This document shows, piece after piece, positions 35,912 through 59,402 of a DNA stretch of 64,000 nucleotides; positions within the stretch are counted from its first letter, which is position 1; each line of letters starts with the position of its first letter. The stretch comes from Candidatus Eiseniibacteriota bacterium (GTDB taxonomy: Bacteria; Eisenbacteria; RBG-16-71-46; JABDJR01). A program made the translations under genes and the position numbers. The DNA lies in assembly GCA_963783375.1 (NCBI GenBank), contig CAWANH010000028.1:1056001-1120000 (forward strand), given 5' to 3'. The notes beneath the pieces are model-generated. The model worked only from the letters and a program-made list of their open reading frames with translations, did no database searches and was not told the origin of the DNA.

Positions 35912-38538
35912 GGCGTGGTCCCCGCGAATGGGTTGGAGACGTACGGCGGCCAGCTTTCGGGATAGTCGATCAGGCCGGGTTCCCGGACCACGACGCGCTC
36001 GCCACCGGGCACATCGAGGACTCCCCGGGGGAGCCCCGACGTCTGGGTCGGCACCCGATCGAAGTGAACCGGCGCGTAGGCCGTGCCGTCCCGGGTCAAG
36101 GTCCCGGAGGCCTCGAACGACCCGAGGTCGAGCTGGATCGTGCACAGCGCACAGGGAAGGTAGAACGCCCCCGCCACCGCCGCGGGGTTCAGGCCGTAGT
36201 GATGGCCGCCGTGCGCGCCGGAGTCGGCGAACCGCCAGTTCCAGCGCGTCCACCCCGCCCCGGTGAGGTGGTCGTGGAACGAGTACCCCGTGAACGCCTC
36301 GTCGAGCGAGATCCGATCCCCGTTTTCGAGCGTCGCCTCTCCAAGCACGCTCTCGTCGGTGCTCCACCCGTCCCGGCCGGAGGCAGTCAGCCCGGTATGG
36401 CGGAGATTCACCTCCGCCGTTCCGGCTTCGGGGAGGGATACCCGGCCGGCGACCGTGCGGTCGAAGGGGCTCCCCGAGGCGGCGCCCTGGACTCCGGGCG
36501 CGGCCGCCTGTCCCTGGGAGACGGTGAGATCGAACCCGTCCCCGTCGGTGGCGCGGAAGGCCAGCGTCCCCACGAAGTCGAAGCCGTTCGGGCTCTCCGG
36601 CTCGCGGACGTCGAGAGAACCCTGGTAGCCCGTCACCCAAACCGTCCAGGCCGGACCCGCCAGGGGTTGGATGACGAGCCGGTCGGCGGGGGCCGGCGCG
36701 TACGTGTAGGTGGAGAGGTCCTGGCGCAGGGTTCCGGTGGTCGGAGACGCGCCGCTCAGGCGGCCGGCCAGGTCCAGCGCGTAGGCCACCACCCCGGTGA
36801 CCTGGTCGCTCACCAGGCTCAGATCGTGCCCGGTCTGGACCAGGGCGTTCAGGAAGGCGCTTTCGCCGGGGGCGGAATGGGGAACCAGCCCCACCGTCGC
36901 GGTGCCGCTGGCCAGGGGGTCGAGCGCGCTGGTCGCCCGCACCACGATGGTCATGCCGGAGAACACCACCGGAGCGACGTAGTTACCATTGCTGTCGATG
37001 GTCCCGTGACCCAGGCCGCCGTCCACGCTCCAGTCGACCTGGTTGTTCGGGGCGCCCTGGACCGTGGCGTGGAACTGGACCGAGTTTCCCGAATAGAGCG
37101 CGTGCACGAATTCCGGAGCGACGTAGACCTCGTACTCCGCCCGAATGGGGATGGAGCGCTGATCGTACCGGGTCGAATCCTCCACGCTGGTGGCCCGAAC
37201 CGCGACCTGGGAGCCCGGGGGCAGGCTGTTCGGGGCCCGGTAGTTCCCGGCGTCGTCGAGGGTTCCGGTGGCCGGACCTCCGGGAAGGCTCCAGGTCACC
37301 CGCGCGTCCGAGGCCACGTCCACCCGGGCGCGGAAGGAATAGGGACGGGCGGTCACGATCTCCGTCGGGGCGCTCGTGATCACCACCTCCAGCCCCTGTT
37401 CGAGCGTGACCCGGGCGGTCCCCACCGACTGGGGATCGTAGGCGCTGGCCGCCTGGATCAACGCATCGCCGCTCGGGGGGCGGTGCTTGGGGGCGTGGTA
37501 CATCCCATCCGGAGTGATGGTCCCCATGGTGGGGCTGTTGGCCACGCTCCAGGTCACCCCGGGATCCGGCGCGCCCGGAACCACCGCGCTCATCCCCAGA
37601 GAGTCCCCGGTCACCACGGTGGTATCCGGCGGGGTAATCGCCACCTCGAAGGGCCCTCGGATGGGCACGGTGACGGTGTCGGCCATGGTGGTGTCGGCCG
37701 CGCTCACCGCCACCACCACGACTTCCGGCGGATCGGGGACGGCGCCGGGCGCCCGGTAGTTCCCCCGGTAGTCGATCGCGCCGTGCTCCGGTCCGGCGGG
37801 AAGCCTCCAGATCACCCCGCGGTCCGAACGGCCGAAGGCCTTGGCGGCGAAGGTATAGCTCCGATCGGTGATGATCATGGGCGGGTGATCGTAGATCCGG
37901 ACGTAGACCCGGGGTTGAAGCGTGATCCCGGCTCTCGCCCCGGTCTGATGGTCGAGAACCGAGACCGCCCGCACCCAGACCCGGGCGCCGGACCGGGCCT
38001 CGGAGGGTGCGGTGTAGAGCCCGTCCGGGTCCACCTGGCCGGGACCGGTGACCGCGTTTCCGCCCGCGTCGATCAACCCCCAGGTCACCGCGTGGTTGTC
38101 GTTTCCGAACACCAGGGCCTGGAACCGGAGGGTGTCACCGGCCGCCAGCTCGACCTCGGCGGGCAGCACCGCCACCGCGAGACCCTTCCCGGGATTCCCG
38201 GTAAGCACCTCCACCGTGGTGTCGGCGTATCCCGCGCGGTTCATGGCCCTCGCGGTCAGGAGATGGTAGCCGTTCTCGAGCGCGGCGGTCTGGAACCCCA
38301 GCTCGAAGGGTTCGGTGCGATCGGCGGCCAGGCGAAGGGATCCGTCATAGAGGAGCACGCTGTCCGCGCCCTCGGCGGTCACCGGGACGGTGACGCTGTC
38401 GGACAGCACGCTCCAGGGGGTGAGCCCGACCGACAGGATCACCGGCGGGTCGGCCGGACCGGGACGCGTCGGCTGGCCCTTGCCGCAGGAGAGAAGCGCC
38501 GAGACGAGGATCAGGGCGAACGGGACGAGGCGTTTCAC
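35908..38538 (-). CDS. Large lipoprotein with tandem Ig-like repeats and beta-rich C-terminal domain
   Basis: Lipobox LLSC; five repeats VxW...GTIxxxGxYxAP...VxAxSxxD; start GTG. Confidence 0.85.
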   Translation of the reverse strand: MKRLVPFALILVSALLSCGKGQPTRPGPADPPVILSVGLTPWSVLSDSVTVPVTAEGADSVLLYDGSLRLAADRTEPFELGFQTAALENGYHLLTARAMNRAGYADTTVEVLTGNPGKGLAVAVLPAEVELAAGDTLRFQALVFGNDNHAVTWGLIDAGGNAVTGPGQVDPDGLYTAPSEARSGARVWVRAVSVLDHQTGARAGITLQPRVYVRIYDHPPMIITDRSYTFAAKAFGRSDRGVIWRLPAGPEHGAIDYRGNYRAPGAVPDPPEVVVVAVSAADTTMADTVTVPIRGPFEVAITPPDTTVVTGDSLGMSAVVPGAPDPGVTWSVANSPTMGTITPDGMYHAPKHRPPSGDALIQAASAYDPQSVGTARVTLEQGLEVVITSAPTEIVTARPYSFRARVDVASDARVTWSLPGGPATGTLDDAGNYRAPNSLPPGSQVAVRATSVEDSTRYDQRSIPIRAEYEVYVAPEFVHALYSGNSVQFHATVQGAPNNQVDWSVDGGLGHGTIDSNGNYVAPVVFSGMTIVVRATSALDPLASGTATVGLVPHSAPGESAFLNALVQTGHDLSLVSDQVTGVVAYALDLAGRLSGASPTTGTLRQDLSTYTYAPAPADRLVIQPLAGPAWTVWVTGYQGSLDVREPESPNGFDFVGTLAFRATDGDGFDLTVSQGQAAAPGVQGAASGSPFDRTVAGRVSLPEAGTAEVNLRHTGLTASGRDGWSTDESVLGEATLENGDRISLDEAFTGYSFHDHLTGAGWTRWNWRFADSGAHGGHHYGLNPAAVAGAFYLPCALCTIQLDLGSFEASGTLTRDGTAYAPVHFDRVPTQTSGLPRGVLDVPGGERVVVREPGLIDYPESWPPYVSNPFAGTTP

Positions 38539-38689
38539 GGTGGCCTCCGGGGGGGGGAACCGGCAAATTATACCACCGTATCGTTCACGCGCCCAACCCG
38601 GCGGGATTTCAATGAAAACGGCGGATTCTCATTGATGGAGCCTGGGCCGGGGGTTCCGTCCGCGCGGCGGAATGCCCGCGGAGCGGCGG

Positions 38690-39525
38690 TTACTTGCCGC
38701 CGGGCTCGGCGGGTCGGCCGACCGTGGAGCGATACTGCGACTCGAAGGCTTTCAGGTGCGCCTGGTGGGGCGGCGCGATGGGGGCGATGAAGGGGGCCTG
38801 GCCCCGGGGGAGAACCATGCGCTTCCCGGCGGGGACCGCCTCCAGGGCGCCGGGGTTGGGGCCGATCCGGGCCGTGCCCTCCTGGACGCACACGCAGGTG
38901 CCGGTCGAGTCGGTGACCACGGACACGATGGTTCCGGTGAGCTCGATCATCCCATCGGGGGTATGCACGACCAGCCCGCGGCCGGAGAACTCGGGGCCGG
39001 TCATCACCTGCAGTTCCCCGACCCGGACCAGGCACCGCGCGGTGGACCCCATCCAGCGGCCGGGGGAGTTGGGGATGGTCCACTCGGTGCCCGGCGAGGC
39101 CTGGAACATGAGCACGTGATCGAACATGACGTCGACGGTGGTGGTCGGGTTCAGCTTCAAGGTGGCCCCGGGTTGGAGCGCGGCGGTCAGGGCGCCGTGG
39201 ATCGGAGAGCGGGATCTCCACCGCGTTCACCCACGCCGTGCCCTCCCCGGCGGCGCGCACCAGGGTGAGGGCGGGACCGCGGTTCACCAGGACCAGCGCC
39301 ACCACCAGGATCGGCCGCCGCGGCGGGAAGCGCCACCCAGCGGGTCCACCAGCCCGGCCCGGGGGCCCCGGTGGGCACGGGCTTTCCCTCGACCCGCCCG
39401 GAGACGAAGTCGTTCCGGAGGCGGTTCCGGAAGGCGGGGTTGGCCGCGGGAGCGCCGAGGGCCCGCACCGCATCCCGCACCCGTTCCTCCTCCGGGGTGA
39501 GCGCCGGATCCCGAGGCTCGCTCAT
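38690..39525 (-). pseudogene. FecR-like anti-sigma/sensor, split by two frameshifts
   Basis: AFRNRLRNDF, TM ILVVALVLV, FecR-like VHTPDGMIELTGT...VQEG; frame switches at ~39312 and ~39197; overlaps the sigma stop. Confidence 0.7.
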
Positions 39526-40169
39526 GCCAGCACCCCCCTCAGGAGCTCGCCCAGCCGCGAGAGCGCGCGGGAATAGCGCTTCCTCACCGCGGCATGGCTC
39601 GCCCCGACCACGCCCGCAATCTGGTCGTGGCTCATCCCCTGGTAGTCGTGCAGGAGCACGACGGCCCGGAGCGGTTCGGGGAGCTTGAGAATCGCTTCCT
39701 GCACCAGTTCCTCACGTTCCTTTCGCGCGATCTCCGGGACGCCGTCCGAGTCCCGGTGGGACGCGGCGTCCACCAGACCCGGGTGCTCGTCGATGGAGCT
39801 GGTGAGGCGGTCCATCCGATGGCGGCGGGAGCGCCATACGTCCCGGCAGGCGTTATAGGTGATGGTGGTGATCCAGGGTCCGGGGTCCCGGCTGGGATCG
39901 AGCCGGTGGGCCGCGCCGTAGATCTTCACGAACACGTCCTGGGTGGCGTCCTCGGCCGCCTCGGTGTCTCCGAGGAGGCGGTGAGCCAAGCCGTAGACCC
40001 GGTTGAAATAGGCCTCGAAGAGATCGTTCAGGGCCTGGGCGTCCCGGGCCTTCACCCGCTCCAGGACCTCCCGGGACAGATCGGGGCCGCCCGCCCTCGG
40101 GGGCGGGGACGCGGCCGGTTTCCCTGGGGTCATGGTCGGAGGCCGACCTGGATCCTTCCGGTTGTCCAT
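39522..40169 (-). CDS. ECF sigma-70 factor
   Basis: AEDATQDVF...PWITTITYNACRD; LPEPLRAVVLLHDYQGMSHDQIA...AVRKRYSRA. Confidence 0.92.
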   Translation of the reverse strand: MDNRKDPGRPPTMTPGKPAASPPPRAGGPDLSREVLERVKARDAQALNDLFEAYFNRVYGLAHRLLGDTEAAEDATQDVFVKIYGAAHRLDPSRDPGPWITTITYNACRDVWRSRRHRMDRLTSSIDEHPGLVDAASHRDSDGVPEIARKEREELVQEAILKLPEPLRAVVLLHDYQGMSHDQIAGVVGASHAAVRKRYSRALSRLGELLRGVLA

Positions 40170-40170
40170 C

Positions 40171-40563
40171 TTAAGTACGCAATTGCCCCTCAGGTGTGCC
40201 CGGGGCCGGACGACGGCGGTCCGGGATACCGGATTGCGGCGGCCGGGTCGAGGGGACGCCGGCCGGTCGGGAGCGCAGTCTATCAGACCCCGAATGGGGG
40301 GAGGGGAAGGGGCGAAGCCCGGCCTGGAGCGCCTCGGGAGCGTCACCGGGCCCCGGTGGCCGCGCCTCCGAGGCCTCGCCGGGCCGTTTGGGGATCTCGT
40401 CGGCCGGGGGCCGGGGACCGCTGGTCTGGACGATTCGAATCATGACGTAAACGCTCACGATGAGGACCAGGACGGCCCCCACCAGGATCACCCGGCGGCC
40501 GGACATCCGCCAGGTGCGCCGGCCCGGGGGGAGTTTGCCGGGAGGGCCGGGGGCGGGCGTCAT
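40171..40563 (-). CDS. Small single-pass membrane protein (hypothetical)
   Basis: One TM VILVGAVLVLIVSVYVMI followed by a Pro-rich tail; boundaries uncertain. Confidence 0.45.
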   Translation of the reverse strand: MTPAPGPPGKLPPGRRTWRMSGRRVILVGAVLVLIVSVYVMIRIVQTSGPRPPADEIPKRPGEASEARPPGPGDAPEALQAGLRPFPSPHSGSDRLRSRPAGVPSTRPPQSGIPDRRRPAPGTPEGQLRT

Positions 40564-40981: not shown

Positions 40982-43546
40982 ATGATGAAGCCCGCGGCCG
41001 GAGTCCTCTTGACCCTCGCGTTGCTCGTTGCGGTCGCCGTGCCGCCCGCGGCGGGGCAGGCCGGCGGCCAGTCCCAGGCCGTGGTGGCGCTGCACATCGC
41101 CCCCAGCGCCGACTTCAGCAACCGCTGCACCTGGTGGTACCCGGACCAGCCCTGTGGGGACTTCACGACCTCGTGGCCTCTCGGCGCGGGGGCCATGGTC
41201 TACATGATCGTCGCTCGTGCGGATTCAGCCCTTGGGGTGAGCGGTCTGAGCTGCGGAGTCCGTTACCAAAGCCCGGGGACGGTGACGGATGGCGTCGGTG
41301 TGGACGTGTTCGGCTACACCTTCTGCTCGGACTTCCAGTTTCCCCAGAGCGCGGACGGGAATCCCAATCACCTCTTCCCCTACTCGGGCGGCGGGAACCG
41401 GTTCATCTGGGATTCGACCGCGAACTGCCGTCGGCACGTCGTGGCTCCGTACGGGGTCGAGACGATCGCGTGCGCATTCTACGTCTACGCCTACAGCCCC
41501 GACGAGTTCCGGGTGACGCCGAACGAAACCGGGGCGGGCCCCCCGGAGTTCCAGGTGCTGGACTGTGATGGGGCGATGGCGTCCGAACTGGCCTTCCCCG
41601 GGTCGGCGGGAATGATCGGGTTCGACCGGGCCGGATTCAACCCCTGCACGGACGCCCTCGGGAGCCTTCCTCCACCGGTCCTGCTGAACGCCTCGGGTGC
41701 GCCGGGCCACGACGAGGTGTCGGTGCTCTTCAGCGAGGAGGTGTTCGACGGGGCGGCCGTCTCCGCGAACTATGAGGTCCATCCCACTGCGTATCCCGCG
41801 TCCCCCCTGGAGGTGAACGCGGTGTCGGTTCTGGGGCCCACGGTGACCCTGACCCTGGCGTCGAACCTGGACGGGGTGACCCAGTACTCGGTGGACGTTT
41901 CCAACGTCGGCGGCTGGGGCGGGAGCCCGATCGCCCCGAACTCGACCGTCACCTTCACGACCGCGGTGCTGGACAGCGTCCCGCCGAATCTGACCGGGGC
42001 CTCGGGGTCGGCGGGGAAGGCCCAGGTGCTGGTCGATTTCAGCGAAGCCGTGGGGGGAGGGGGCGCTACCGCTTCCAATTTCAGCGTCTATCCGGTAGCG
42101 GACCCGGCGGGGGGGATCGCCGTGTGTTCGGCGGCGGCTTCAGGCGCCCGGGTCACCCTCACCCTGGCATCGAGCCTGGCCTGGGGAACCCAGTACGAGG
42201 TGCGGGTTTCCAACGTCCAGGACAAGGCGGGGAACGTGATCGCGCCCAACTCGACCGCGACCTTCACCACCCAACCGGGGGACACCACCCCACCGACCCT
42301 GGTCGCGGTGACCGGGGCGGCGAGCAGCGACGGCGTTCTGGTGGACTTCAGCGAAACCGTGGCCGCGGGCACGGTCATCCCGGCCAACTTCGCGGTTTAC
42401 CCCGCTTTGGACCCCGCGTCACCCCTCGAGGTGATCGAGACATCGGCCTCGGGCAGCCGGGCGAGGCTCACCCTGGCCTCGAAGCTGGCCGGATTCACGC
42501 AGTACGCGGTGAGCGTCTCGAACGTCACCGATACCTGGGGGAACGTGATCGCCCCGAACGCGACCGCGACGTTCACGACCGGCGCCCCGGACCTCACCCC
42601 GCCGACCCTGACCCTGGCCTCGGGCTCGGCCGGCGACAACCGGATTACGGTGTTCTTCAGCGAAGCGGTGGGTGCCAACGCGGCGGTGGCGACGAACTAC
42701 GCCGTACACCCGTCCGACGAGCCTTCCGCGCCCCTGGCCGTCCTCGCGGCCGTCATCCCGCCCGGTTCCTCCAGCTCCGAGGTGATCCTGACCCTGGACG
42801 GGGCCCTCGACTACCGCACCTACACCGTGGTGGTCTCGGGGGTCAGGGACGTGGCCGGGAACCCCATCGCGCCCGACTCCCCGATCAACTTCACCGCCAC
42901 GAGTCTTCACGGCCTGCCGGGCGGTCAGTCCCAGTCCGTGGTGACGCTCCACGTTCAGACCCACGTGGCAAAGCAGATCATCTGCGATGGGCTGAGCAGC
43001 ACCCTGAGCTGCAATGAATTCGTTCAGACCTGGCCGGTTCACAAGGGGGCCGACGTCTACCTGGTGGTGGCCTGGGCGCGGGCGGACCTGGGGATCAGCG
43101 GGGTGAGCTGCGGGATCCGCTACGACCCGGCGCCCGGAGCGGGGTGCGACGTCCTGGGGTACTCGTCGTGCGCGGATCTCGAGTACACCAACGCCGGGGC
43201 CAATGGCGAGTGGCCGGCATCGGGGGGAGGGAACCGCCTCATCTGGCTCCGGACCACGAACTGCCAGCGGACCGAGCGGCCGGCCTGCGCGGTCCACGCG
43301 GTGGCGGCCGGGTTCTACGTGTACGCCTACGGCCCCGACCAGTTCGCGGTCATTCAGAACGAGAACCTGGAGACCGGGCCGGAGTTCCAGGTGGTGGACT
43401 GCGACGGGCCGGTGAGTTCCAGCATGGAGTTCCCGACCCACGCCGGGAAAGTCGGTTTCGGGATGGCCGGCTACAACCCCTGTACCGCGCTGGACGTGCC
43501 GACGGTTCACACGACCTGGGGGCGGCTCAAGAACCAGTATCACTGA
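40982..43546 (+). CDS. Secreted protein: Cys-rich domain, four SbsA/Big_5-like Ig repeats, second Cys-rich domain, TWGRLK tail
   Basis: Signal peptide; four repeats PPxL...VxFSExV...LTL...YxVxVSxV..GNxIAP; two copies of a GGQSQ..SGGGNR..YVYAY..PEFQV..GxNPC domain. Confidence 0.85.
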   Translation: MMKPAAGVLLTLALLVAVAVPPAAGQAGGQSQAVVALHIAPSADFSNRCTWWYPDQPCGDFTTSWPLGAGAMVYMIVARADSALGVSGLSCGVRYQSPGTVTDGVGVDVFGYTFCSDFQFPQSADGNPNHLFPYSGGGNRFIWDSTANCRRHVVAPYGVETIACAFYVYAYSPDEFRVTPNETGAGPPEFQVLDCDGAMASELAFPGSAGMIGFDRAGFNPCTDALGSLPPPVLLNASGAPGHDEVSVLFSEEVFDGAAVSANYEVHPTAYPASPLEVNAVSVLGPTVTLTLASNLDGVTQYSVDVSNVGGWGGSPIAPNSTVTFTTAVLDSVPPNLTGASGSAGKAQVLVDFSEAVGGGGATASNFSVYPVADPAGGIAVCSAAASGARVTLTLASSLAWGTQYEVRVSNVQDKAGNVIAPNSTATFTTQPGDTTPPTLVAVTGAASSDGVLVDFSETVAAGTVIPANFAVYPALDPASPLEVIETSASGSRARLTLASKLAGFTQYAVSVSNVTDTWGNVIAPNATATFTTGAPDLTPPTLTLASGSAGDNRITVFFSEAVGANAAVATNYAVHPSDEPSAPLAVLAAVIPPGSSSSEVILTLDGALDYRTYTVVVSGVRDVAGNPIAPDSPINFTATSLHGLPGGQSQSVVTLHVQTHVAKQIICDGLSSTLSCNEFVQTWPVHKGADVYLVVAWARADLGISGVSCGIRYDPAPGAGCDVLGYSSCADLEYTNAGANGEWPASGGGNRLIWLRTTNCQRTERPACAVHAVAAGFYVYAYGPDQFAVIQNENLETGPEFQVVDCDGPVSSSMEFPTHAGKVGFGMAGYNPCTALDVPTVHTTWGRLKNQYH

Positions 43547-43609
43547 CCGGTCAGGGGCCGGGAAATTGTCGGTTTGCGGAAACGGCGGCATTCGCCAAGG
43601 AGGTCGAAC

Positions 43610-44335
43610 ATGAGATGGACGATCATGGCTCTCGGAATCGTCACTGTCCTGGTTGTGTGGCTCGTACCGCCGGCGGCCGCCCAGCCGGCCGGCCAGTCCC
43701 AGGCGGTGGTGGCGCTCCACACGTTTTCCGGCGGTGACTTCGGCCACTGGTGCAAATACTGGAATTACGACGAGCCTTGCAGCGAGTTCACAACCACCTG
43801 GCCCCTCGAGGCCGGAACCCGGATCTACGTCATCGTGGCCCGGGCGGATTCTGCCCTGGGAGTGAGCGGTATCAGCCTGGGGGTCACGTACCAGACTCCA
43901 GGGGGAAGTACGGACGGGGTTGGGGTGGATGTCTTCGGGTACGTCACATGCGCGGATTACGAGTTTCGGGAAGGAGGGGACGGTAGCCCCGATCAGATCT
44001 TTCCCGCTTCGGGTGGCGGGAATCGGCTTTTTTGGGAACCGACTACGAACTGCCAGCGCCACGTGGTGAGTCCCTACGGGGTCGAGACGCTCGCCTGCGT
44101 CATCTATGTCTACGCCTACGGTCCCGATCAATTCGCCGTCATTCCCAACCCCGCCGGCGCCAACGGCCCCGAGTTCCAGGTGGTGGACTGTGTCGGCCCC
44201 ACCGCCTGGGATCTGGAGTGGCCGTCGCACGCGGGGGTGGTCGGGTTCGGGATGGACGGCTACAACCCCTGCATCGCGCTGGGGGTCCCGGTCGAGGCCA
44301 CGACCTGGGGGAGGCTCAAGAGCCAGTACCACTGA
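43610..44335 (+). CDS. Secreted protein with a single Cys-rich domain and TWGRLK tail (paralog of the upstream gene)
   Basis: AAGGAGG RBS, signal peptide, same domain, ends VPVEATTWGRLKSQYH. Confidence 0.85.
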   Translation: MRWTIMALGIVTVLVVWLVPPAAAQPAGQSQAVVALHTFSGGDFGHWCKYWNYDEPCSEFTTTWPLEAGTRIYVIVARADSALGVSGISLGVTYQTPGGSTDGVGVDVFGYVTCADYEFREGGDGSPDQIFPASGGGNRLFWEPTTNCQRHVVSPYGVETLACVIYVYAYGPDQFAVIPNPAGANGPEFQVVDCVGPTAWDLEWPSHAGVVGFGMDGYNPCIALGVPVEATTWGRLKSQYH

Positions 44336-44400
44336 CGATCGCCTGAAGGGAAAGACGCGCCGCCGCGAACCGGCCTGAGCCCGCGGCGGCGTCGCTTACT

Positions 44401-44691
44401 TCAGTACACCCGTTCCGCCGGCATGGCGAAGATGCGGATCTCGTCCTTGCACGGGGTGTCGCAGGCGAACTCCTTCACCGCCGCCACCAGGGCCTCGACC
44501 TGTTCGGCCGGAAGGATGGTGAGGATCATGCTCGTGGTCCCCGGGAAGGCCCGGGTCCCGAGCTTCCGCCCGCTCAACCCCGCCCCCAGCACGTTCGGGA
44601 TCTCGGTGTAGGCATGGATCTCGTGCTGCTCGATCACCGCCTGCATCTCGGCCAGGCAATCCGACGGAACCAGCACCATCATGAGCTTCAT
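44401..44691 (-). CDS. PII-like, transporter-associated small protein (PG0541-like)
   Basis: 96 aa: AYTEIPNVLGAGLSGRKLGTRAFPG...IRIFAMPAE; coupled to the RND stop. Confidence 0.75.
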   Translation of the reverse strand: MKLMMVLVPSDCLAEMQAVIEQHEIHAYTEIPNVLGAGLSGRKLGTRAFPGTTSMILTILPAEQVEALVAAVKEFACDTPCKDEIRIFAMPAERVY

Positions 44692-47600
44692 CACGCGTCC
44701 TCCGTTGCCGCCGCCGGCGTGGCCTCGCTCCCGCGCTGCTGCAGGTAGTAGAGAATCGGAACCACCACCAGGGTGAGCACGGTGGCGGTGATCGACCCGC
44801 CGATCAGCGAGATCGCCAGGCCCTGGAAGATCGGGTCGAACAGGATGACCACCGCCCCCACGATCACCGTTCCCGCGGTGAGGACGATCGGCCGCAGCCG
44901 GACCGCGCCCGCCTCCAGGATGGCCTCCTTGAGGGGCAGCCCGCGCTCCCGGGCCAGGCCCACGAAGTCGAGGAGCAGCACGCCGTTTCGCACCATCACC
45001 CCGGCCAGGGCGATGAAGCCGATCATGGAGGTGGCGGTGAAGAAACCGTGGAAGACCCAGTGGCCGATGAGGATCCCCACCAGGCTCAGGGGAATCGACA
45101 CCATCATGATGAGCGGGGTGCGGAGATCCTGGAACCAGCCCGCGATGAGCATGTAGATGAGGATCAGGACCACCCCGAACGCGAGCCCCAGGTCCCGGAA
45201 CACCTCGCGGGTGATCTGCCACTCGCCGTCCCAGCGCACCGCGTACTGGCTCTGGCTGGACGGGTCGGCGGCGAAGAGCTGGGACACCGTCTCGCCCCGG
45301 GAGCCGGTGAGCGCGTCGATCTTGTCCTTCATCTCGAGGATGGCGTAGACCGGGCTCTCCTGCTCTCCGGCAAGCTCGCCCACCACGTACACCACCGGGA
45401 GCCCGTTCTTCCGGTAGCGGCTCACCGCGCGCTCGGTGCGGACCGGGGTCATGACCGACGCCGCGGGGACGAGATCCCCCTGGTTGGTGGGGAGGCGGAG
45501 ATCGCTCACCGCCAGGAGCGAGTTCCGCTCGTCCCGCGGCCAGCGCACCATGATCGGGACCGGTTCGAAGGTATCCGGGGGATGGAGCGCCCCCACCTGG
45601 GTGCCGGAGAGCGCCAGGTGCACCGCCTGGACCACGCTGGCCGGCGCCACCCCGGCCAGGGCGGCGCGGGTGGGATCCACCTCCAGGTTCCATTCGGCCT
45701 GGGGGGCCTCGACCATCCAGTCGACGTCCACCACGCCGGGGGTGTCCTCCATGATCTTCCGCACCTTGGTGGCCAGCTCGAGACGGCTCTCCTGGTCCGG
45801 CCCGTAGACCTCGGCCACCATGGTGGAGAGGACCGGGGGTCCCGGGGGCACCTCGATCACCTTGAGCCGCGCCCCGTAGCGCTCGGCCACCGGGAGCGCC
45901 CGCTCACGGAGCACGCCGGCCAGCTCGTGGCTCTTCCGCCGGCGCTCCTTCTTGGGCTTCAGGTTCAACTGGATGTCGGCGGCGTTGGGGGATTGGCGGA
46001 AGTCGTAGTGGCGGACCAGACCGTTGAAGGTGATGGGGCTCGCGGCGCCGGTGTAGACCTGGAGGTCCTCCACCTCCGGCACCGAGGCCACCGCCTCGGC
46101 CATGTCGTGGGCCGCGGCGTCGGTCACCTCGAGGGGCGTCCCCTCGGGCATGTCCACCATCAGCTGGATCTCGCTCTTGTTGTCGAAGGGGAGCATCTTC
46201 ACGGTGACGAGCTTCAGGGGGAGGAGTGCGAAGCTCAGGACGAGGAGCAACGCGATCCCGCCCAGGGTCATGAGTCCCTTCCGCGGCTCGTCGAGGAGCG
46301 GCCCCACCACCCGGTTGTAGAACCGGCGGATACCGTCGGGGGCGGGCTCCTCTTCCTCTTCGGGGACCGGCGCGGCGTGCTTGCCCTCCGCCTTCAGGAG
46401 CTTCTTGCTGAGCCAGGGCGCCATGGTGAGGGCCACCAGGAGCGAGAAGGTCATGGCCAGCGACGCCCCGATCGGCATGGGACGCATGTAGGGACCCATG
46501 AGGCCGCCCACGTAGGCCATGGGAAGAACCGAGGCGATCACGGTCAGGGTGGCCAGCACGGTGGGGTTCCCGACCTCGGACACCGCGGCGAGGATCGAAG
46601 CCTGGGGCCGGTGGCCCCGGTGCATGCGGAAGTGGCGGTAGATGTTCTCGACGATGATGATCGAGTCGTCCACCACGATCCCGGCGATGAAGATGAGCGC
46701 GAAGAGGGTCACCCGGTTCAGGGTGTAGCCGAAGATGTAATAGGTGAAGAGGGTGAGCGCGAAGGTGACCGGAACCGAGACGAAGACCACCACCCCGCCC
46801 CGCAATCCCAGCACCAGCCCGGTGAGCACGGTCACCAGCACGATGGCGATTCCAAGATGCAACAGGAGGTCCGACGCCTTCTCGTTCGCGGTCTCGCCGT
46901 AGTCCCGGGCCACGGTGAGGTGGACGTCGGAAGGCAGGAGCCGCCCGCGCACCGCCTCCACCCGCTGGAGCACCGCCGCGGCCACCCGGGTGGCGTCGGT
47001 GCCTTTCCGCTTGGCGATGGTGAGGGTCACCGCGGGAGCGGTGCGCCCGGTCGGGAACGCCGCCGCCACCGCGTTCACGCCGCCTTCCTCCACCCCTTGC
47101 TCGTCGGCCATGGCCGCGCCGGCGGCGAAGGCCACGTAGCTGTCGGTCTCGGGGACCTCGGTCACCGTGGCCACCGAGCCCAGGCGGACCGGCCGGCCGT
47201 CCATGACCCCGACCACCACCGAGGCCACGTCCTCCCGGGTCTTCAGGAAGGCGTTGGTCCGGACCAGGGTGGCCTGGTTGTTCGAGACCAGTTCCCCGCC
47301 GGGAGCGGCGGCGTTGGCCGCCTGGAGCCGCCCGATCACCTGCTGGGGGGGGATTCCCGCCGCGGCCAGGGCGCGGCTGTCCAGGCGCACCTCGAGGGTG
47401 CGGCGGCGCCCGCCGATCAGGTGGGTCACCGAGACGTCGGGGACCGCGCGCACCTCCTCCTCCAGGCCGGCGGCGACGTCCCGGAGGAGCATCTCGTCGC
47501 CCTCGTCCTGCCACAGGGTGAGCGCGAGGATCGGCACGTCGTCGATCAGCCGCGCCTTGACCAGGGGCGGCGTGGCCCCCGGCGGCATCTCGTCCATGCT

Positions 47601-47966
47601 TCCGGCCAGGGCGTCGTAGAGCTTCACCATGCTCCGCTCCTGGTCGTCGCCGACCTTGAAGCGGACGGTGATCATGGCCATGTCGGGGAGCGAGGTGGAG
47701 TAGACGTACTCGACCCCGGGAAGCTCCATCAGGAGCCGCTCGGTGGGGCGGGTCACCCGGTCCTCGACTTCCTTGGGGGAGGCGCCGGGAAGGCCCACCA
47801 TGACGTCGGCGAAGGGAACCACGATCTGGGGCTCCTCCTCGCGCGGGGTCTGGACGATGGCCAGGGCGCCGAGGAGGATGGCCGCCATCATGAGAAGCGG
47901 GGTGATCTTGGAGTCGAGGAACATCGAGGCCAGGCGCCCCGCAATCCCGTAGCCGCCCGGCTTCAT
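44691..47966 (-). CDS. RND efflux transporter permease (AcrB/CusA superfamily)
   Basis: PREEEPQI, LNRVTLFALIFIAGIVVDDSIIIVENI, GAVRLRPIVLT; 1091 aa. Confidence 0.95.
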   Translation of the reverse strand: MKPGGYGIAGRLASMFLDSKITPLLMMAAILLGALAIVQTPREEEPQIVVPFADVMVGLPGASPKEVEDRVTRPTERLLMELPGVEYVYSTSLPDMAMITVRFKVGDDQERSMVKLYDALAGSMDEMPPGATPPLVKARLIDDVPILALTLWQDEGDEMLLRDVAAGLEEEVRAVPDVSVTHLIGGRRRTLEVRLDSRALAAAGIPPQQVIGRLQAANAAAPGGELVSNNQATLVRTNAFLKTREDVASVVVGVMDGRPVRLGSVATVTEVPETDSYVAFAAGAAMADEQGVEEGGVNAVAAAFPTGRTAPAVTLTIAKRKGTDATRVAAAVLQRVEAVRGRLLPSDVHLTVARDYGETANEKASDLLLHLGIAIVLVTVLTGLVLGLRGGVVVFVSVPVTFALTLFTYYIFGYTLNRVTLFALIFIAGIVVDDSIIIVENIYRHFRMHRGHRPQASILAAVSEVGNPTVLATLTVIASVLPMAYVGGLMGPYMRPMPIGASLAMTFSLLVALTMAPWLSKKLLKAEGKHAAPVPEEEEEPAPDGIRRFYNRVVGPLLDEPRKGLMTLGGIALLLVLSFALLPLKLVTVKMLPFDNKSEIQLMVDMPEGTPLEVTDAAAHDMAEAVASVPEVEDLQVYTGAASPITFNGLVRHYDFRQSPNAADIQLNLKPKKERRRKSHELAGVLRERALPVAERYGARLKVIEVPPGPPVLSTMVAEVYGPDQESRLELATKVRKIMEDTPGVVDVDWMVEAPQAEWNLEVDPTRAALAGVAPASVVQAVHLALSGTQVGALHPPDTFEPVPIMVRWPRDERNSLLAVSDLRLPTNQGDLVPAASVMTPVRTERAVSRYRKNGLPVVYVVGELAGEQESPVYAILEMKDKIDALTGSRGETVSQLFAADPSSQSQYAVRWDGEWQITREVFRDLGLAFGVVLILIYMLIAGWFQDLRTPLIMMVSIPLSLVGILIGHWVFHGFFTATSMIGFIALAGVMVRNGVLLLDFVGLARERGLPLKEAILEAGAVRLRPIVLTAGTVIVGAVVILFDPIFQGLAISLIGGSITATVLTLVVVPILYYLQQRGSEATPAAATEDA

Positions 47967-49030
47967 CGGGTCACCTCGACCGGGTCGCCGTCCTCGAGCG
48001 TGGCCGGGGGGGCGGCGATCACGGTGTCGCCGGGGGAGAGGCCGGCTTCCACCCGGCCCTCGGGGCCGAGGCGAAGCCAGCGCAACGACGCATGTCCGTC
48101 ATGGACCAGGAAGGCTCCGGTCAGGGGGCCGCGGCGGACCAGGGCGCCGTCGGGAAGACGGAGCGCGTCCACCGAATCCGCGGCGAAGAGCGTGGCCCGG
48201 ACGAAGCTCCCGCTGGGGGCTTCGAGCCCTTCGGGACGGAGATAGATCTCGATGGTGTGGCGGTCGGCGCCGGGAGTGACCCGGTTCACCGTGGCCGGGC
48301 GGGCGTTGCCGTCGTCGAGGGCGCTACGCACCTCGGCCCGGTCGCCGGGATGGACCGGCCAGGCCATCTCGGCGGGAAGGGTCACCCGCACTTCCAGATC
48401 CGCGGGGTTCTCGAGCACCACCAGGGGCCGCCCCGGGGTGGCGAGATCGCCGGCCCGGGCCAGCCGCCGGACCACCACGCCCCGCGCCGGCGCGCGAAGC
48501 ACCGCGTAGTCCAGGTTCCGCCGGCTCATGTCGACCATGGCCTTGGCCCGCTCGTGGGCGGCGACGGCTCCGGCCGCCGCACCCTCCGCCATCTCCACAT
48601 CGTGGGGGGTCACCACCTGGCCCGCCACCAGCCGGCGCATGCGCGCGGCCTGGCGCTGGGCGTTGTCGGCGTTCACCCGGGCCGCCTCCTCGGCGGCCTG
48701 GGCCTGGACCAGCCCCGAAGCCAGCTCGGGGGAGTCGAGCCGGGCCAGGACGTCGCCGGCCTGGACCACGGTGCCCTCGGTCACCGGGATCCCGGTGATC
48801 CGCCCGGCGATCTTCGACGCGATCTCCATCCGGTTCTGGGCCACCAGCTCGCCGGAAAGATCCAGGCGGGAGGGTTCGGCCCGGTCGGCCATCACCACCG
48901 CGGCCACCGCCACCGGTGGGCCGTCGTCGTGGGCGGGCGTGCTGTTCCCCCGGCCGCAGGCGGAGAGACCGATCGCGGCGGCGACGGTGACCAATAGGAA
49001 CGAAAACGTGGAGAGGGGACGGGTCGTCAT
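47963..49030 (-). CDS. RND periplasmic adaptor (membrane fusion) lipoprotein
   Basis: Lipobox LSAC; IASKIAGRI..EGTVVQAGD, LRAPARGVV..GDLATPG, GLSPGD. Confidence 0.93.
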   Translation of the reverse strand: MTTRPLSTFSFLLVTVAAAIGLSACGRGNSTPAHDDGPPVAVAAVVMADRAEPSRLDLSGELVAQNRMEIASKIAGRITGIPVTEGTVVQAGDVLARLDSPELASGLVQAQAAEEAARVNADNAQRQAARMRRLVAGQVVTPHDVEMAEGAAAGAVAAHERAKAMVDMSRRNLDYAVLRAPARGVVVRRLARAGDLATPGRPLVVLENPADLEVRVTLPAEMAWPVHPGDRAEVRSALDDGNARPATVNRVTPGADRHTIEIYLRPEGLEAPSGSFVRATLFAADSVDALRLPDGALVRRGPLTGAFLVHDGHASLRWLRLGPEGRVEAGLSPGDTVIAAPPATLEDGDPVEVTR

Positions 49031-50424
49031 CGCGATTCCTCCGGAAGCTCCAGGGTTCCCGCGGCCAGGCGCAGGGCGGTCCGGGCCAGCGCGCGCTCGT
49101 GGCGCGCCGAGGCCGCCGCCAGCTCGGTCCGGGTCAGGTTGTTCTGGGATTGGGTGAGGTCCAGGGTGGTCACCAGGCCTTCGGTGTGGCGCTCCTCCAT
49201 GAGACGGAACGACTCGCGGGCCGAGACCACGGCGGCCTCGAGCGCGGTCGCGCGCAGTTCCGCCGCCTTCAGGCGATCGAAGGCCACCCGCGCCTCGTGG
49301 CGGGCGTTTTCCCGGGCGGCGTCCGCCATGTCCCGGGCGGCCCGGGATTGGGCCTGGGCCGCGCGGACCCGGCCGGCCACCCCGGCGTCGAGGCTCATGC
49401 GCGCTCCCAACGCCACCATCCACTGATTCCCGCCCTCGCCGAGGAAGTCCTTGCTGTTGTGCTCGGTCTGGGCCATGACCTCGAAGGCGGGGAAGAGCTG
49501 GGAGCGGGCCAGGCCCACTCCCGCCGAGGCCGCGCGCAGGTTCTGGCGCGCCGCCCGGACGTCGCGGCGATCGGACGAGGCCTCGACCGCGGCGGAAAGA
49601 GAGGGGACCGACACACCCGGTTGGTCGTCGGGTTGGACCAGGGTCTCTGCGATCGGGCCGTCCGCCCCCAAGACGAGTCCCAACATGCTCCGGGCCTCGG
49701 CGCTGTCCGCCTCGGCCGAAGCCACCGACGCCTGCATTTCCAGGACGTGGGCGTTCAGCGCCTGGCGGTCCGACTGCAGCGCCAGGCCCTCGGCCCAGAG
49801 GCTTTCCACCCGAACCGCCTCGAGCCGGGCGGTGGCCAGGGACTCGCGGAGCAGCGCGGCCTTCTCATCGGCCAGGAGCGAGTAGCGGAACGCCTTCTCC
49901 GTGTTGTAGGCGGTCTCCATGGCCGCGCGCTCCCCCCGGTCCCGGGCGGCCTCGGCCTGGGCCCGGCTGGCGGTCAAACCCGAGGTGATCGCCCCCCCGG
50001 TCCACAGCGGCTGGTGCACGCTCACCGCGGCCCGGACGTTGGTGACCGGATCGGGGGTGTTGAGGATGGAGAGATCGAAGGCGCCGGCCTGGGGATCGAA
50101 GGTGCCGAAGTTCGCGGGCCCGAAGCGTTCCTGGGCGAGGAGGCTTCCGAACACGTAGACCGGGTGATCGGTGCGCGAGGCCCCGAGCTCCCCCTCCACC
50201 CGGGGGAGCCGCCCCCACGAGGCCGCCCCCGCCGCGGATCCGGCGGCGTCGGCCTGGGCCCGAGCCGCGCCGAGCCGCGGGTTCTCGCGAAGCGCCCGGC
50301 GGATCGCCTCGTCCAGGGTGAGACCCCCGTCCGCCCGCGCCGCCCCGGCCACCATCAAAGCGGCCACCAACGCCCCGAGGGCGTAACTCCACCGTCTCCT
50401 TGGGGTCACAGAATGGGTTATCAT
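49027..50424 (-). CDS. TolC-family outer membrane efflux protein
   Basis: Signal peptide, LTLDEAIRRALRENP, helical repeats, EGLVTTLDL. Confidence 0.92.
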   Translation of the reverse strand: MITHSVTPRRRWSYALGALVAALMVAGAARADGGLTLDEAIRRALRENPRLGAARAQADAAGSAAGAASWGRLPRVEGELGASRTDHPVYVFGSLLAQERFGPANFGTFDPQAGAFDLSILNTPDPVTNVRAAVSVHQPLWTGGAITSGLTASRAQAEAARDRGERAAMETAYNTEKAFRYSLLADEKAALLRESLATARLEAVRVESLWAEGLALQSDRQALNAHVLEMQASVASAEADSAEARSMLGLVLGADGPIAETLVQPDDQPGVSVPSLSAAVEASSDRRDVRAARQNLRAASAGVGLARSQLFPAFEVMAQTEHNSKDFLGEGGNQWMVALGARMSLDAGVAGRVRAAQAQSRAARDMADAARENARHEARVAFDRLKAAELRATALEAAVVSARESFRLMEERHTEGLVTTLDLTQSQNNLTRTELAAASARHERALARTALRLAAGTLELPEESR

Positions 50425-52860: not shown

Positions 52861-53073
52861 GCGGATCGCGACGCCGGCGTCGGGCTGATTCCGGTCGAAG
52901 TCGCGCGGCCCGGTTCGCGTTGTGTTCCCTCCGTCCCCGGGCTACCCTTGTTCGACCATGACGTCGACCCACCCTCGCCGGCATCTTCCCGGCCCCCGCG
53001 TTTCGTTCCCGGCCCCGGTGCGCGCCGTGTTGCGGCCTCGGATGGCCGGGCGCGAAGGACCCGGGGGTTTGCG

Positions 53074-57707: not shown

Positions 57708-59402
57708 CTACTTCAGGATCACCATCCGCCGGGTGAGGCTCCTGGAGCCCCAGTTGAGCCGATAGAAGTAGACGCCGGCGCTCACCCTCGAACCATTCCG
57801 GTCCCGTCCGTTCCAGGTCACCGCGTAGTCGCCGCGGGGCTGGGGCTCGTCGACCAGGCGCCTGACCAGGCGCCCGCTGGCGTCGAACACGCTCAGATCC
57901 ACCGTCGAGGCCGGAGACCCCTCCGGAATCGCGTAGGTGATGATGGTCGTTGGCTTGAAGGGGTTGGGATGATTGGAACCCAGGACCAGCCCCGGCCGTC
58001 CGGGAGCCGTCTCTTCGTCGACCCCGGTGGCCTGAAGGTCCTGCAGCTTGCTCACGAAGATGGCGGCGGGGACGCCCACCGTCCCGGTGAAGTAGACGCC
58101 GCCCGCGTCGTCCACGACAATGCCGTTCCCGCGATTGGCCGAGCCGGAGTCGAGGCTGTGGGTGAAGTTCAGGATGCCGCCGTTCCCGCTCAGCTCACAA
58201 ACGACGATTTCCGCGCCGAAATCGATGTTCCCCGGGGGAAAATCGCCCGAGGTGGTGTATCCGGCCACGAAGGCGTTTCCCTGGCCATCGATGGCCACGC
58301 TCCGGGCCTCGTCCACGGTGGAACCGCCGATGAAGGTGCTCCAGATCAGCCCGGCCCCGGTGGTCGAGAGCTTGCTGACAAAGAAGTCCTCACAGTTGTA
58401 GTCGGCACCGAACGGCACCTCGCACCCGTTGACGGCGCCCACGAAGCCCTCCTGGAAGGCGCCCGGGGTGGTGGGAAAGTCCTCCGAGCGCGTGGGGCCG
58501 GCCAGGTAGACGTTCCCGGCCGCGTCCGCAACCATGTCGCCCAGCCGATCGATGTCCGAGCCTCCGACGTAGCTGCTGAAGAGCAACGTTCCTCCGTCCG
58601 CGGACAGCTTGCTGATGAAGAGGTCGTTCGGGGCGGTGTCGACGGCGTTCACCAGGGGAAAGTCCTGGGCGGTGGTATGACCGGCGACGATGATATTGCC
58701 GTCGGCATCCAGGGCGATGCGGTCGCCCCAGTCGTCCTCGGTCCCGCCAAAGTAGGTGCTGTAGAGGATTTCGTTCCCGCCGGCGGAGAGCTTGGTGATG
58801 AATGCGTCATGGTAGAAATACAGCGGAAAGCCGGGCCCGGGCTGATAGGCGTCCTCGGTCGTGGGAAAGTCGGTCGATCCGGCGACGCCGGTGAGGTAGA
58901 TCGCATCGGCGTCGTCGATGGCGATGCCGGATCCGGAATCGGAGTAGTCGCCGCCCAGGAACGTGCTGTAGAGGATGGTTCCGTCCGAGGAAGCGAGCTT
59001 CGTCAGAAAGACGTCCCGGAAGCCGGTGAGGGTACCATCCATGGGGTTCACGACCGGAAAGTCCGGGGAGTCCGTCCAGCCGGTCACCCAGAGATCCCCC
59101 TTGGAATCGAGGGCCAGGTCGGTGGCGTAGTCGTGGTCACTGCCCTCGATGTAGCGGTTCCAGAGCTCGTCGCCGGAGGCGTCCAGCTTGATGATCACCA
59201 CGTCCAGATGGACGCCGTCCGCATACGCGGAGCCGATGAGAAAGGCCGCACCTTCGTCGTCGACGACGAGCTTGCCGGCGTGGGGAAGCGTATATCCGGA
59301 AAGGAAGGTCTCGTACTCCACGCCCGGCGCCTGGGCGGAGGCGAGCCGGCTGAATGAAGACAATCCAAGAACGAGAGCGAGCAGGAGAATTTGGCGGCGC
59401 AT
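57708..59402 (-). CDS. Secreted SBBP-repeat beta-propeller protein with FlgD-Ig/T9SS-like C-terminal domain
   Basis: Signal peptide; repeats YSTxxGG..D....IAxD..G..YxxGxTxSxDFP; C-terminal NHPNPF...DASGRLVRRL...WNGRDRNG..VSAGVYFYRL. Confidence 0.9.
   Translation of the reverse strand: MRRQILLLALVLGLSSFSRLASAQAPGVEYETFLSGYTLPHAGKLVVDDEGAAFLIGSAYADGVHLDVVIIKLDASGDELWNRYIEGSDHDYATDLALDSKGDLWVTGWTDSPDFPVVNPMDGTLTGFRDVFLTKLASSDGTILYSTFLGGDYSDSGSGIAIDDADAIYLTGVAGSTDFPTTEDAYQPGPGFPLYFYHDAFITKLSAGGNEILYSTYFGGTEDDWGDRIALDADGNIIVAGHTTAQDFPLVNAVDTAPNDLFISKLSADGGTLLFSSYVGGSDIDRLGDMVADAAGNVYLAGPTRSEDFPTTPGAFQEGFVGAVNGCEVPFGADYNCEDFFVSKLSTTGAGLIWSTFIGGSTVDEARSVAIDGQGNAFVAGYTTSGDFPPGNIDFGAEIVVCELSGNGGILNFTHSLDSGSANRGNGIVVDDAGGVYFTGTVGVPAAIFVSKLQDLQATGVDEETAPGRPGLVLGSNHPNPFKPTTIITYAIPEGSPASTVDLSVFDASGRLVRRLVDEPQPRGDYAVTWNGRDRNGSRVSAGVYFYRLNWGSRSLTRRMVILK

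Follow-up and report, generated by a model that had tools for sequence, protein, structure and literature searches.

The signals known for type IX secretion systems (T9SS) are folded domains, and these systems are described as requiring the PorLM motor. PorA of P. gingivalis, which we take to be a resident T9SS protein, combines an Ig-like domain with such a signal, the CTD. According to the accessible text of one study, a beta-sandwich is required for T9SS export in P. gingivalis (PMC11285876). Even the short Prevotella CTDs are three-stranded sheets of 40–51 residues, and the CTD cleavage consensus is PT/GI with a small residue at +1, at least in the available text of PMC11969387. In the type A CTD one conserved Lys contacts PorV, as stated in the accessible part of PMC10994853.

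The tail described here has only about 16 residues. Like the type A CTD (TIGR04183/PF18962, including the FlgD-like form and the short Prevotella CTDs), it is found at the C-terminus of Sec-exported proteins of many families, it has a T/S-small-V/I linker ahead and a conserved Lys near the end, and it occurs on the same domains, and in genomes that carry SprA, PorV and PorU-like genes. It differs in being predicted as helical, whereas the type A CTD is a beta-sheet of 40–100 residues. Furthermore, none of 89 tails matched TIGR04183, and the tail also occurs N-terminally, in tandem and on membrane-tethered proteins. Canonical T9SS of Bacteroidia has the PorL/PorM motor, whereas GldM was not found in the hosts of the tail.

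Other systems offer partial parallels. PEP-CTERM/exosortase, MYXO-CTERM, GlyGly-CTERM and LPXTG likewise are many-to-one terminal tags on small surface-type proteins; these tripartite signals share choice-of-anchor domains with the tail, and VPxEPTT of the tail resembles VPEPTT. However, the tail lacks both a transmembrane helix and an Arg cluster, and a cognate membrane protease was not identified. The C-terminal strand of PilC/PilY1 is likewise a short peptide at the extreme terminus and docks on an export machine, but the tail is predicted to be a helix, has dozens of carriers per genome, and is kept where no secretin was found.

Two tail-bearing proteins in the window

The window, by which we mean the whole stretch of 64,000 nucleotides that was analysed, contains two proteins that end in the tail and, for comparison, one with a full CTD:

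40982..43546, forward strand: ORF of 854 aa; signal-peptide-like N-terminus, cohesin-like domain, four Big_5 Ig-like repeats, second cohesin-like domain, TWG tail
41057..41650 (approximate limits), forward strand: N-terminal cohesin-like domain copy of the 854-aa protein, from alignment, without tail
43493..43546, forward strand: TWG tail 1, end of the 854-aa ORF; 17 residues plus stop, DVPTVHTTWGRLKNQYH*; weight-matrix score 47.3
43610..44335, forward strand: ORF of 241 aa; signal-peptide-like N-terminus, one Cys-containing cohesin-like beta-sandwich, TWG tail
44282..44335, forward strand: TWG tail 2, end of the 241-aa ORF; 17 residues plus stop, GVPVEATTWGRLKSQYH*; weight-matrix score 48.4
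57708..59402, reverse strand: protein of 564 aa with a full T9SS type A-like CTD at about 57717-57968 and a T-G-V linker before it (TIGR04183 31.4 bits, cut-off 23)

The 241-aa ORF may alternatively start at TTG 43574 or ATG 43625. Its protein had no match in Pfam or NCBIfam. Cohesins were the best structural matches of its AlphaFold2 model (Z 11.1, rmsd 2.8, 128 aligned; Foldseek E 1.6e-5), which had a mean pLDDT of 80 but of less than 50 in the tail. The 854-aa protein probably has the same fold, judging from this paralogue and from the domain alignment; its Big_5 repeats were matched in 4 stretches (Pfam E 3e-33). A scan for promoters and terminators yielded nothing exceeding shuffles.

Both tails were read in the sequence, as the initial annotation had claimed, and in neither is the motif followed by a transmembrane segment, in line with its statement that a TM helix is lacking. 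Its remark that the N-terminal domain copy of the 854-aa protein has no tail was borne out by the alignment. The two window proteins alone do not prove that the tail is independent of the domain, because they belong to one domain family; the proof comes from the genome-wide set.

Extent of the tail in this genome and beyond

The tail, with the consensus P[VT]P[VT]E-x-[TS][TS]W[GS]-x-[ILV]K-x-x-Y, is the C-terminus of 72 ORFs in this genome, which by kinship belongs to Ca. Eisenbacteria. Of these ORFs, 67 are called genes and 5 were uncalled or frameshifted, and a clear gap separates them from lower scores of the position weight matrix. The strict motif [ST]WGx[ILVM]K was present within the last 20 residues of 53 of the 3926 genes (crude calling), and internally only twice in 1,287,467 residues. 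An N-terminal hydrophobic segment without later TM helix, a hydrophobicity heuristic rather than a SignalP call, was found in 56 of 65 long tail proteins compared to 927 of 3548 genes (26%; Fisher p about 1e-24). Hence, the check proposed at the outset, a terminal motif search with signal-peptide enrichment, gave a positive result, and the tail is not equally common on cytoplasmic proteins. Comparison of 65 tail proteins resolved 39 unrelated groups, so it is not confined to one domain family either.

The window proteins are paralogues, and the domain family common to both has 10 tail-bearing members in this genome. From these alone the motif might have been a feature of one cohesin-like domain family, or chance. 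This explanation is refuted by the 39 unrelated groups, the 53 terminal versus 2 internal matches, and the DNA pattern, which was matched in 152 of 153 genomes of the phylum with reversed-pattern controls of mostly 0–1.

The W, K and [ST] columns were fixed by the seed pattern; outside the seed, Tyr occupies +7 in 54 of 63 tails and Pro -6 in 52 of 63. The tail is terminal and multi-copy, has at least three near-invariant residues, accompanies signal peptides and sits on unrelated carriers. These are general properties of C-terminal sorting signals as listed in the accessible text of bioRxiv 10.1101/2023.06.07.544157. The motif was not already assigned in the models and papers that we consulted: a search of 89 tails against Pfam, NCBIfam and PDB sequences gave nothing meaningful, the freely readable main texts of the literature searched (without supplements) contained no description of it, and the window tail retrieved only unnamed clusters from the ESM Atlas, all below 0.9.

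The same peptide ends proteins in several further bacterial phyla. The range given in the initial annotation held for Poribacteria and Eisenbacteria, while Latescibacterota and Fermentibacteraceae are each represented by one named record. In the Ignavibacteria class, 78 of 81 genomes (selected for a completeness of at least 90%, individual values not displayed) have a single copy of one Ig-like tail-ended protein, in which the match reaches residue 137–138. The tail was present in all 120 homologues listed, and 23 of 28 distinct tails of this family had the linker [ST][GSA][VI][KR], a pattern similar to the cleavage consensus of the CTD. Elsewhere the same domain was directly followed by a CTD in 20 of 20 further matches fetched. 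In architecture the protein resembles PorA, being a small Ig-like domain with a signal at its end, but it ends in a predicted TWG helix and not in a CTD. A protein search did not find it in this genome, and a domain profile matched only FN3-like and pre-CTD segments. Foldseek gave only generic FN3-like folds, none at E<=0.001, and the ESM Atlas only unnamed clusters. At the DNA level, 13 of the 14 pattern matches fetched from the Ignavibacteria class were chance or internal, and all 27 three-mismatch loci read in a Bacteroidota sample were chance. The groups that hold the single-copy protein presumably include cultured members, such as Ignavibacterium, Melioribacter and Rhodothermus. The protein therefore shifts the question from uncultured phyla to organisms in which it is directly testable.

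One explanation might be that the tail is a PEP-CTERM derivative that lost its membrane helix but is still processed by exosortase. In the exosortase search, which covered this genome, one exosortase was found along with four PEP-CTERM proteins that are similar in size; the sequence E-P-x-[ST]-W is present in 10 of 65 tails, and one tail protein matches family PepA below the cut-off. Yet, the tail lacks the transmembrane segment and Arg cluster that define PEP-CTERM-type signals in the available text of bioRxiv 10.1101/2023.06.07.544157, while the EP core is absent in the single-copy family and spaced differently in Poribacteria. We consider such a derivation very improbable.

Position and shape of the tag

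The motif was originally said to track the C-terminus. The 53 terminal versus 2 internal matches agree with this, but N-terminal, internal and tandem copies also exist. The tag was found at the mature N-terminus of C28:1279421 and 2 homologues, and in tandem arrays of up to four. Among the best 150 database matches, 8 had more than one copy and 148 a C-terminal copy, a share that is biased because the profile was built from C-terminal tails. An inner-membrane anti-sigma-like protein has the tag in 18 of 42 homologues, and three lipoproteins carry it as well; both would be atypical as T9SS cargo. Its N-terminal, tandem and anti-sigma-borne occurrences would suit a docking peptide better than a signal that works only at the terminus.

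A helix was predicted at residues 125–136 of the single-copy Ig-plus-tail protein (pLDDT 63–70); the helical moment (0.35 for a helix versus 0.43 for a strand) did not favour one. With a predicted helix and no sandwich, the tail is not a CTD.

Could the tail serve type II secretion (T2SS) or type IV pili, for instance like the C-terminal strand of PilC/PilY1, with which the PilK sheet is completed at the tip of the pilus? PilC tails are likewise short terminal peptides in the accessible text of PMC13533445. Secretins occur in 92 of 92 genomes of the phylum and in 5 of 5 Poribacteria, and the T2SS operon of genome G007 has one tail gene inside and three just behind, while one follows the secretins in G002. 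This idea is weakened by the persistence of the tail protein in secretin-less genomes: no secretin was detected in 35 of the 81 Ignavibacteria-class genomes, and all 35 keep the single-copy protein (tail read directly in 13). In addition, the PilX/GspK-type subunits read seem to offer no strand vacancy, because most bear their own W-containing terminal strand (the main PilX of this genome, 9 of 12 PilX_N loci, and 3 GspK of Poribacteria). Exceptions are one locus with a short PilX and a separate downstream gene, and a second locus in this genome that looks frameshifted. The PilX_N search found 0 of 14 Poribacteria, which is uninformative since Poribacteria possess T2SS with GspK. The predicted helix also argues against a pilus signal, as do the tail genes clustered near porV in G002 as well and the lack of any near the G012 secretin. 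Overall, a role in T2SS or pili seems improbable.

Ties to type IX secretion

The new element of our results is the link between the tail and T9SS. Several domains end in a tail in one protein and in a CTD in another. C1:228900 (tail) shares 52–54% identity (best three) with C28:475566, which has five domain copies, the last just before its CTD. C28:590966 and C28:591728 form a second pair, and C28:855773 compares with two CTD proteins. The choice-of-anchor families E, V, W and X exceeded the cut-off in 5 of 49 tail proteins scanned. Signals unrelated to T9SS also take part in domain swaps. In Poribacteria-type genomes, the motif lies 3–6 residues ahead of a full CTD at 13 loci (targeted search; 10 are tandem paralogues); beyond that search, a fusion was seen at one chance locus and in 1 of 30 unselected CTD proteins. 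Motif and CTD in one protein may perform two separate jobs. The results show the tag as a modular element that ends unrelated proteins with signal peptides, substitutes for the CTD on shared domains and is sometimes fused before it.

SprA, PorV and PorU are encoded in tail-bearing genomes. SprA was matched in 46 of 48 genomes chosen by the tail (31 over the cut-off) and in 90 of 92 of the phylum, the two without match in each set being draft assemblies. Within the phylum the SprA profile separates nothing, because secretins are equally universal (92/92). The PorV model matched in 81 of 81 Ignavibacteria-class genomes (70 over the cut-off), and the PorV family and C25 peptidase were each present in 5 of 5 additional tail genomes. 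In this genome porU and porV form an operon, with PorU at 401.5 bits, just below the 420 cut-off, and PorV over the cut-off as a family but under it as equivalog. Of 45 genomes with the tail, 0 had GldM above the cut-off (one gave a weak partial match), versus 5 of 5 Bacteroidota where the tail was not seen. The contrast is confounded by phylogeny, and the GldM model by which the motor was judged is built on Bacteroidia and may miss a divergent one.

On balance, we slightly favour the explanation that the tail is a short docking tag, which would route Sec-exported proteins to the SprA/PorV/PorU machinery where the PorM/GldM motor was not found. The tag would consist of the T/S-x-V/I linker followed by the predicted [ST]W[GS]x[ILV]KxxY helix. 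After Sec export, the carrier would fold in the periplasm, and the Trp/Ile/Lys/Tyr helix might bind a T9SS component non-covalently, candidates being a PorV-family shuttle, PorU and SprA. The carrier would then be moved to, or kept at, the outer membrane. The invariant near-terminal Lys resembles the Lys of the type A CTD by analogy only. PorU may cleave some carriers at the linker, but given the N-terminal, internal and tandem copies this cannot be a general rule; among the tails of this genome, 52 of 63 have Pro, not G/S/A, directly after the putative cut. No recurring candidate reader was found near sprA (8 loci), PorV-family genes (29 loci) or the single-copy gene (53 loci).

Alternatively, the helix might be a non-covalent envelope anchor or scaffold-docking peptide, comparable to dockerins or S-layer modules, with a receptor in the periplasm or at the surface and without a role in outer-membrane crossing. 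Avidity would explain copies that are N-terminal, internal or repeated up to four times in tandem more readily than a cleaved signal does, and the tag on lipoproteins and on the membrane-tethered anti-sigma-like protein would fit as well. The same holds for the mean net charge of +1.9 of the tail core, and for the motif-CTD fusions if the CTD serves export and the helix holding. Conversely, the 148 of 150 C-terminal copies, biased as this share is, speak against an anchor, and the CTD-type linker and the replacement of the CTD after a pre-CTD domain point to T9SS. Moreover, Trp is changed to Leu in two motif-CTD fusions, as if redundant next to a CTD. We regard an anchor as less probable than the docking tag.

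The sorting role first proposed for the motif is partly supported, but the tag appears tied to T9SS instead of merely parallel to it, and is not strictly C-terminal. Its ancestral user was probably the Ig-plus-tail protein that Ignavibacteria and other Bacteroidota have in single copy, whereas in Eisenbacteria and Poribacteria it would have spread over dozens of small cargoes. Tentatively, the TWG helix might even be a fourth, minimal class of T9SS signal marking an ancestral motor-less T9SS. The Ig-plus-tail protein would then be a resident component of that machine in Ignavibacteria and the Bacteroidota related to them, the helix would have been turned by Eisenbacteria and Poribacteria into a genome-wide address tag, and the helix-bearing anti-sigma factor would sense the occupancy of docking sites.

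If the docking tag is real, a helical peptide of 16 residues would offer a different way to engage, and perhaps energise, the SprA/PorV translocon in lineages where GldM was not found. It would also assign a destination to more than 1000 unannotated protein clusters (1113 at 50% identity), and a tag this short could be useful for surface display. In this genome, tail genes adjoin CTD genes in 6 of 61 cases versus 24 of 713 other secreted-type genes, a modest excess.

The tail in the window and in its genome

Two adjacent proteins of the window end in the same short peptide, the TWG tail (core [ST]W[GS]x[ILV]KxxY), at the positions that the initial annotation had given. The tail genes and their surroundings are as follows.

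40982-43546 (+): 854-aa protein, two cohesin-like domains flanking four Big_5 repeats; tail at 43493-43546
43610-44335 (+): 241-aa protein, signal peptide, one Cys-containing beta-sandwich, then the tail at 44282-44335
35908-40346 (-): divergent from the tail genes; an ECF sigma factor, a short ORF, an ORF presumably resembling FecR, and an 876-aa Ig-repeat lipoprotein
44396-50424 (-): convergent on the tail genes; what we take to be an RND-type efflux operon, its last gene a small PII-like ORF
52948-57253 (+): presumably peptidoglycan recycling genes (anmK-, spoIID- and nagZ-like)

As claimed earlier, the internal N-terminal copy of the cohesin-like domain in the 854-aa protein carries no tail. 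The structure model of the 241-aa protein (mean pLDDT 80; tail <50) matched cohesins best (Z 11.1, rmsd 2.8, 128 aligned; Foldseek E 1.6e-5). For this predicted structure the match is a likeness of fold, and a common fold does not imply function.

For the source genome, G000, a crude hexamer model called 3926 genes. Of these, 53 had the strict motif within their last 20 residues, versus 2 internal matches in 1.29 million residues. With a weight matrix the tail was found in 67 called genes and in 5 uncalled or frameshifted ORFs, with the consensus P-[VT]-P-[VT]-E-x-[TS]-[TS]-W-[GS]-x-[LIV]-K-x-x-Y, followed mostly by one residue and the stop. In this consensus W, K and the [ST] ahead of W were imposed by the seed pattern; positions free of the seed included Tyr (54/63), Pro-6 (52/63) and Glu-4 (39/63).

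The tail is not confined to one domain family, a possibility that had been raised against it: 65 tail-stripped proteins fell into 39 BLAST groups, 28 of them singletons. The expected enrichment of signal-peptide-like N-termini was also found. Among tail proteins of at least 100 residues, 56 of 65 were hydrophobic near the N-terminus and had no transmembrane helix further on, versus 927 of 3548 overall; most of the other 9 look like mis-called starts or fragments. Tail proteins had a median length of 228 residues, versus 662 for 66 proteins of G000 with the type A C-terminal domain (CTD, TIGR04183) of type IX secretion (T9SS). Known domains in the 49 of 67 tail proteins scanned included choice-of-anchor E, V, W and X, which passed the cut-off, along with copper-binding, lamin-tail, phosphoesterase and beta-helix domains.

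Many genes of G000 are seemingly split by frameshifts (e.g., C29:765039-771319 and C28:705482-708056), including sprA, the second secretin and one paralogue of the 854-aa protein. These splits are probably assembly errors.

Distribution and the single-copy family

When genomes of the phylum were scanned with a DNA pattern of the motif, 152 of 153 matched, and reversed controls mostly gave 0-1 matches; about 20 of these genomes, chiefly of one family, had 1-2 matches each, so that single genomes there are weak evidence. When one genome per species was scanned, at least 124 loci were obtained, of which 110 are in-frame tails. Among the matches listed, 80 titled records included 24 Poribacteria, 22 Eisenbacteria and 13 others, several of the 13 being chance matches. 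Poribacteria had 27-88 pattern matches per genome in 14 genomes. A profile of 89 tails retrieved 1113 clusters at 50% identity. The copy was terminal in 148 of the best 150 matches, the other two being repeat artefacts.

The multi-copy pattern was at background in the class of G048, an Ignavibacteriaceae genome (24 matches versus a similar number in controls). G048 has one tail protein only, of 138 residues, and the family to which it belongs has a single member in each genome.

L300:4969-5385 (G048), L301-L330, L388-L410: single-copy protein of about 135 aa in Ignavibacteria and further Bacteroidota lineages; signal peptide, Ig-like domain and a TWG tail that hardly varies

In 78 of the 81 class genomes, the match to this family extends through the final residues. 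The tail was kept in all 120 listed homologues, and T-W-G, I-K and F-R were invariant in a 66-row alignment. The protein also occurs in more Bacteroidota lineages (23 loci read), some of them apparently Rhodothermia, judging from GC content and recall. Where its Ig-like domain occurs in other proteins, a CTD lies directly behind it (20/20 fetched). The PorV model matched in 81 of 81 genomes of the class. Possibly, the single-copy protein is itself a T9SS component.

Relation to type IX secretion

G000 encodes SprA, six PorV-family genes over the cut-off and six C25 peptidases, one of which is PorU-like and encoded immediately before a PorV-like gene; it also has two secretin loci and a single exosortase, along with four PEP-CTERM proteins. 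Hence, three export routes are candidates. The phylogenetic profiling proposed earlier did not separate the routes within the phylum, where SprA matched in 90/92 genomes and secretin in 92/92.

In G000, domains shared between proteins are tail-ended in one protein and CTD-ended in another. The tail is modular, replaces the CTD and co-occurs with T9SS genes. A minority of cargoes in Poribacteria-type genomes have the motif immediately ahead of a complete CTD (13 loci in a targeted search, 10 being tandem paralogues; 1/30 unselected CTD proteins); in G000 it was found in 0 of 68 CTD proteins. Of the 28 distinct tails of the single-copy family, 23 have a linker that fits the cleavage pattern of CTDs. 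In G000 a similar T/V/S-small-V pattern, picked after both sets had been viewed, preceded 31 of 65 CTDs, against a background of 10%, and had a constant position in 40 of 67 tails. GldM, the motor protein, was over the cut-off in none of 45 tail-bearing genomes versus 5/5 controls, a contrast confounded by descent.

We regard the tail as a real sorting or docking tag, best placed as a variant of a T9SS-type signal. It would work like the CTD, yet lacks the CTD's defining fold and so is not a CTD. The mechanism that we rather favour is non-covalent docking of the predicted tail helix on some part of a SprA/PorV/PorU machine, which would deliver the protein to, or hold it at, the outer membrane; binding, export and cleavage are what we infer. 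Docking on a type II secretion or pilus apparatus seems improbable: secretins are universal in the 92 phylum genomes, but no secretin match was obtained in 35 of 81 G048-class genomes, every one of which has the single-copy protein. Exosortase processing, for which G000 has the enzyme, is more improbable still. The tag is apparently undescribed: no description was found in the open-access literature, including a term search of PMC10515386, and the comparison literature comprised parts of PMC11285876, PMC11969387, PMC10994853, PMC12635249, bioRxiv 10.1101/2023.06.07.544157, PMC13533445 and PMC12618676.

Several gene neighbourhoods were also recorded. At L243:9710-11411 and L251:9321-10130, two 265-270-aa genes of the porU-porV operon of G000 have no assigned name; four Poribacteria-type genomes have a weak homologue behind one of their PorV-family genes. 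Tail genes lie within and just behind a Poribacteria T2SS operon (L247-L248 in G007, L245-L246 in G002), and G002 has a tandem pair of secretin genes. In G047, sprA is immediately followed, on its own strand, by two pilB-like genes, pilT and pilC (L237).

Copies at odds with a simple cleaved signal

The claim that the motif tracks the C-terminus held for most copies but not strictly, as N-terminal and tandem copies occur. The motif lies right after the signal peptide in the protein at C28:1279421 and 2 homologues. It is doubled or up to four-fold in 8 of the best 150 database matches, mostly of one lipoprotein-like family, and three G000 lipoproteins end in the tail. The tail also ends a single-pass membrane protein whose gene comes right after that of an ECF sigma factor; 18 of 42 homologues have it, with a poorly kept linker. 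The W-G-x-I-K region was predicted to be helical in one model, with modest confidence. Given the N-terminal, tandem, lipoprotein- and membrane-protein-borne copies, the portable unit would therefore be this predicted helix, and its reader would be reachable from the periplasm. These copies are where the main rival must be weighed, namely that the tail is an envelope anchor with no role in export; with the exchange of tail and CTD on common domains also in view, we consider it the less likely reading, though a serious one.

Three of these loci have further features. At L062 (G000:C28:1279421-1280092, -), the motif is at the mature N-terminus and the C-terminal part is Cys-rich and hydrophobic; 2 homologues were found. 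L039 (G000:C28:945989-948916) comprises four tandem lipoprotein genes, with the tail on three and a degenerate one on the fourth; relatives have up to four tandem motif copies (protein P0166). At L044 (G000:C28:1952951-1954739, -), the tail-ended single-pass protein behind the ECF sigma factor is anti-sigma-like, and exbB/exbD/tonB-like genes lie just upstream.
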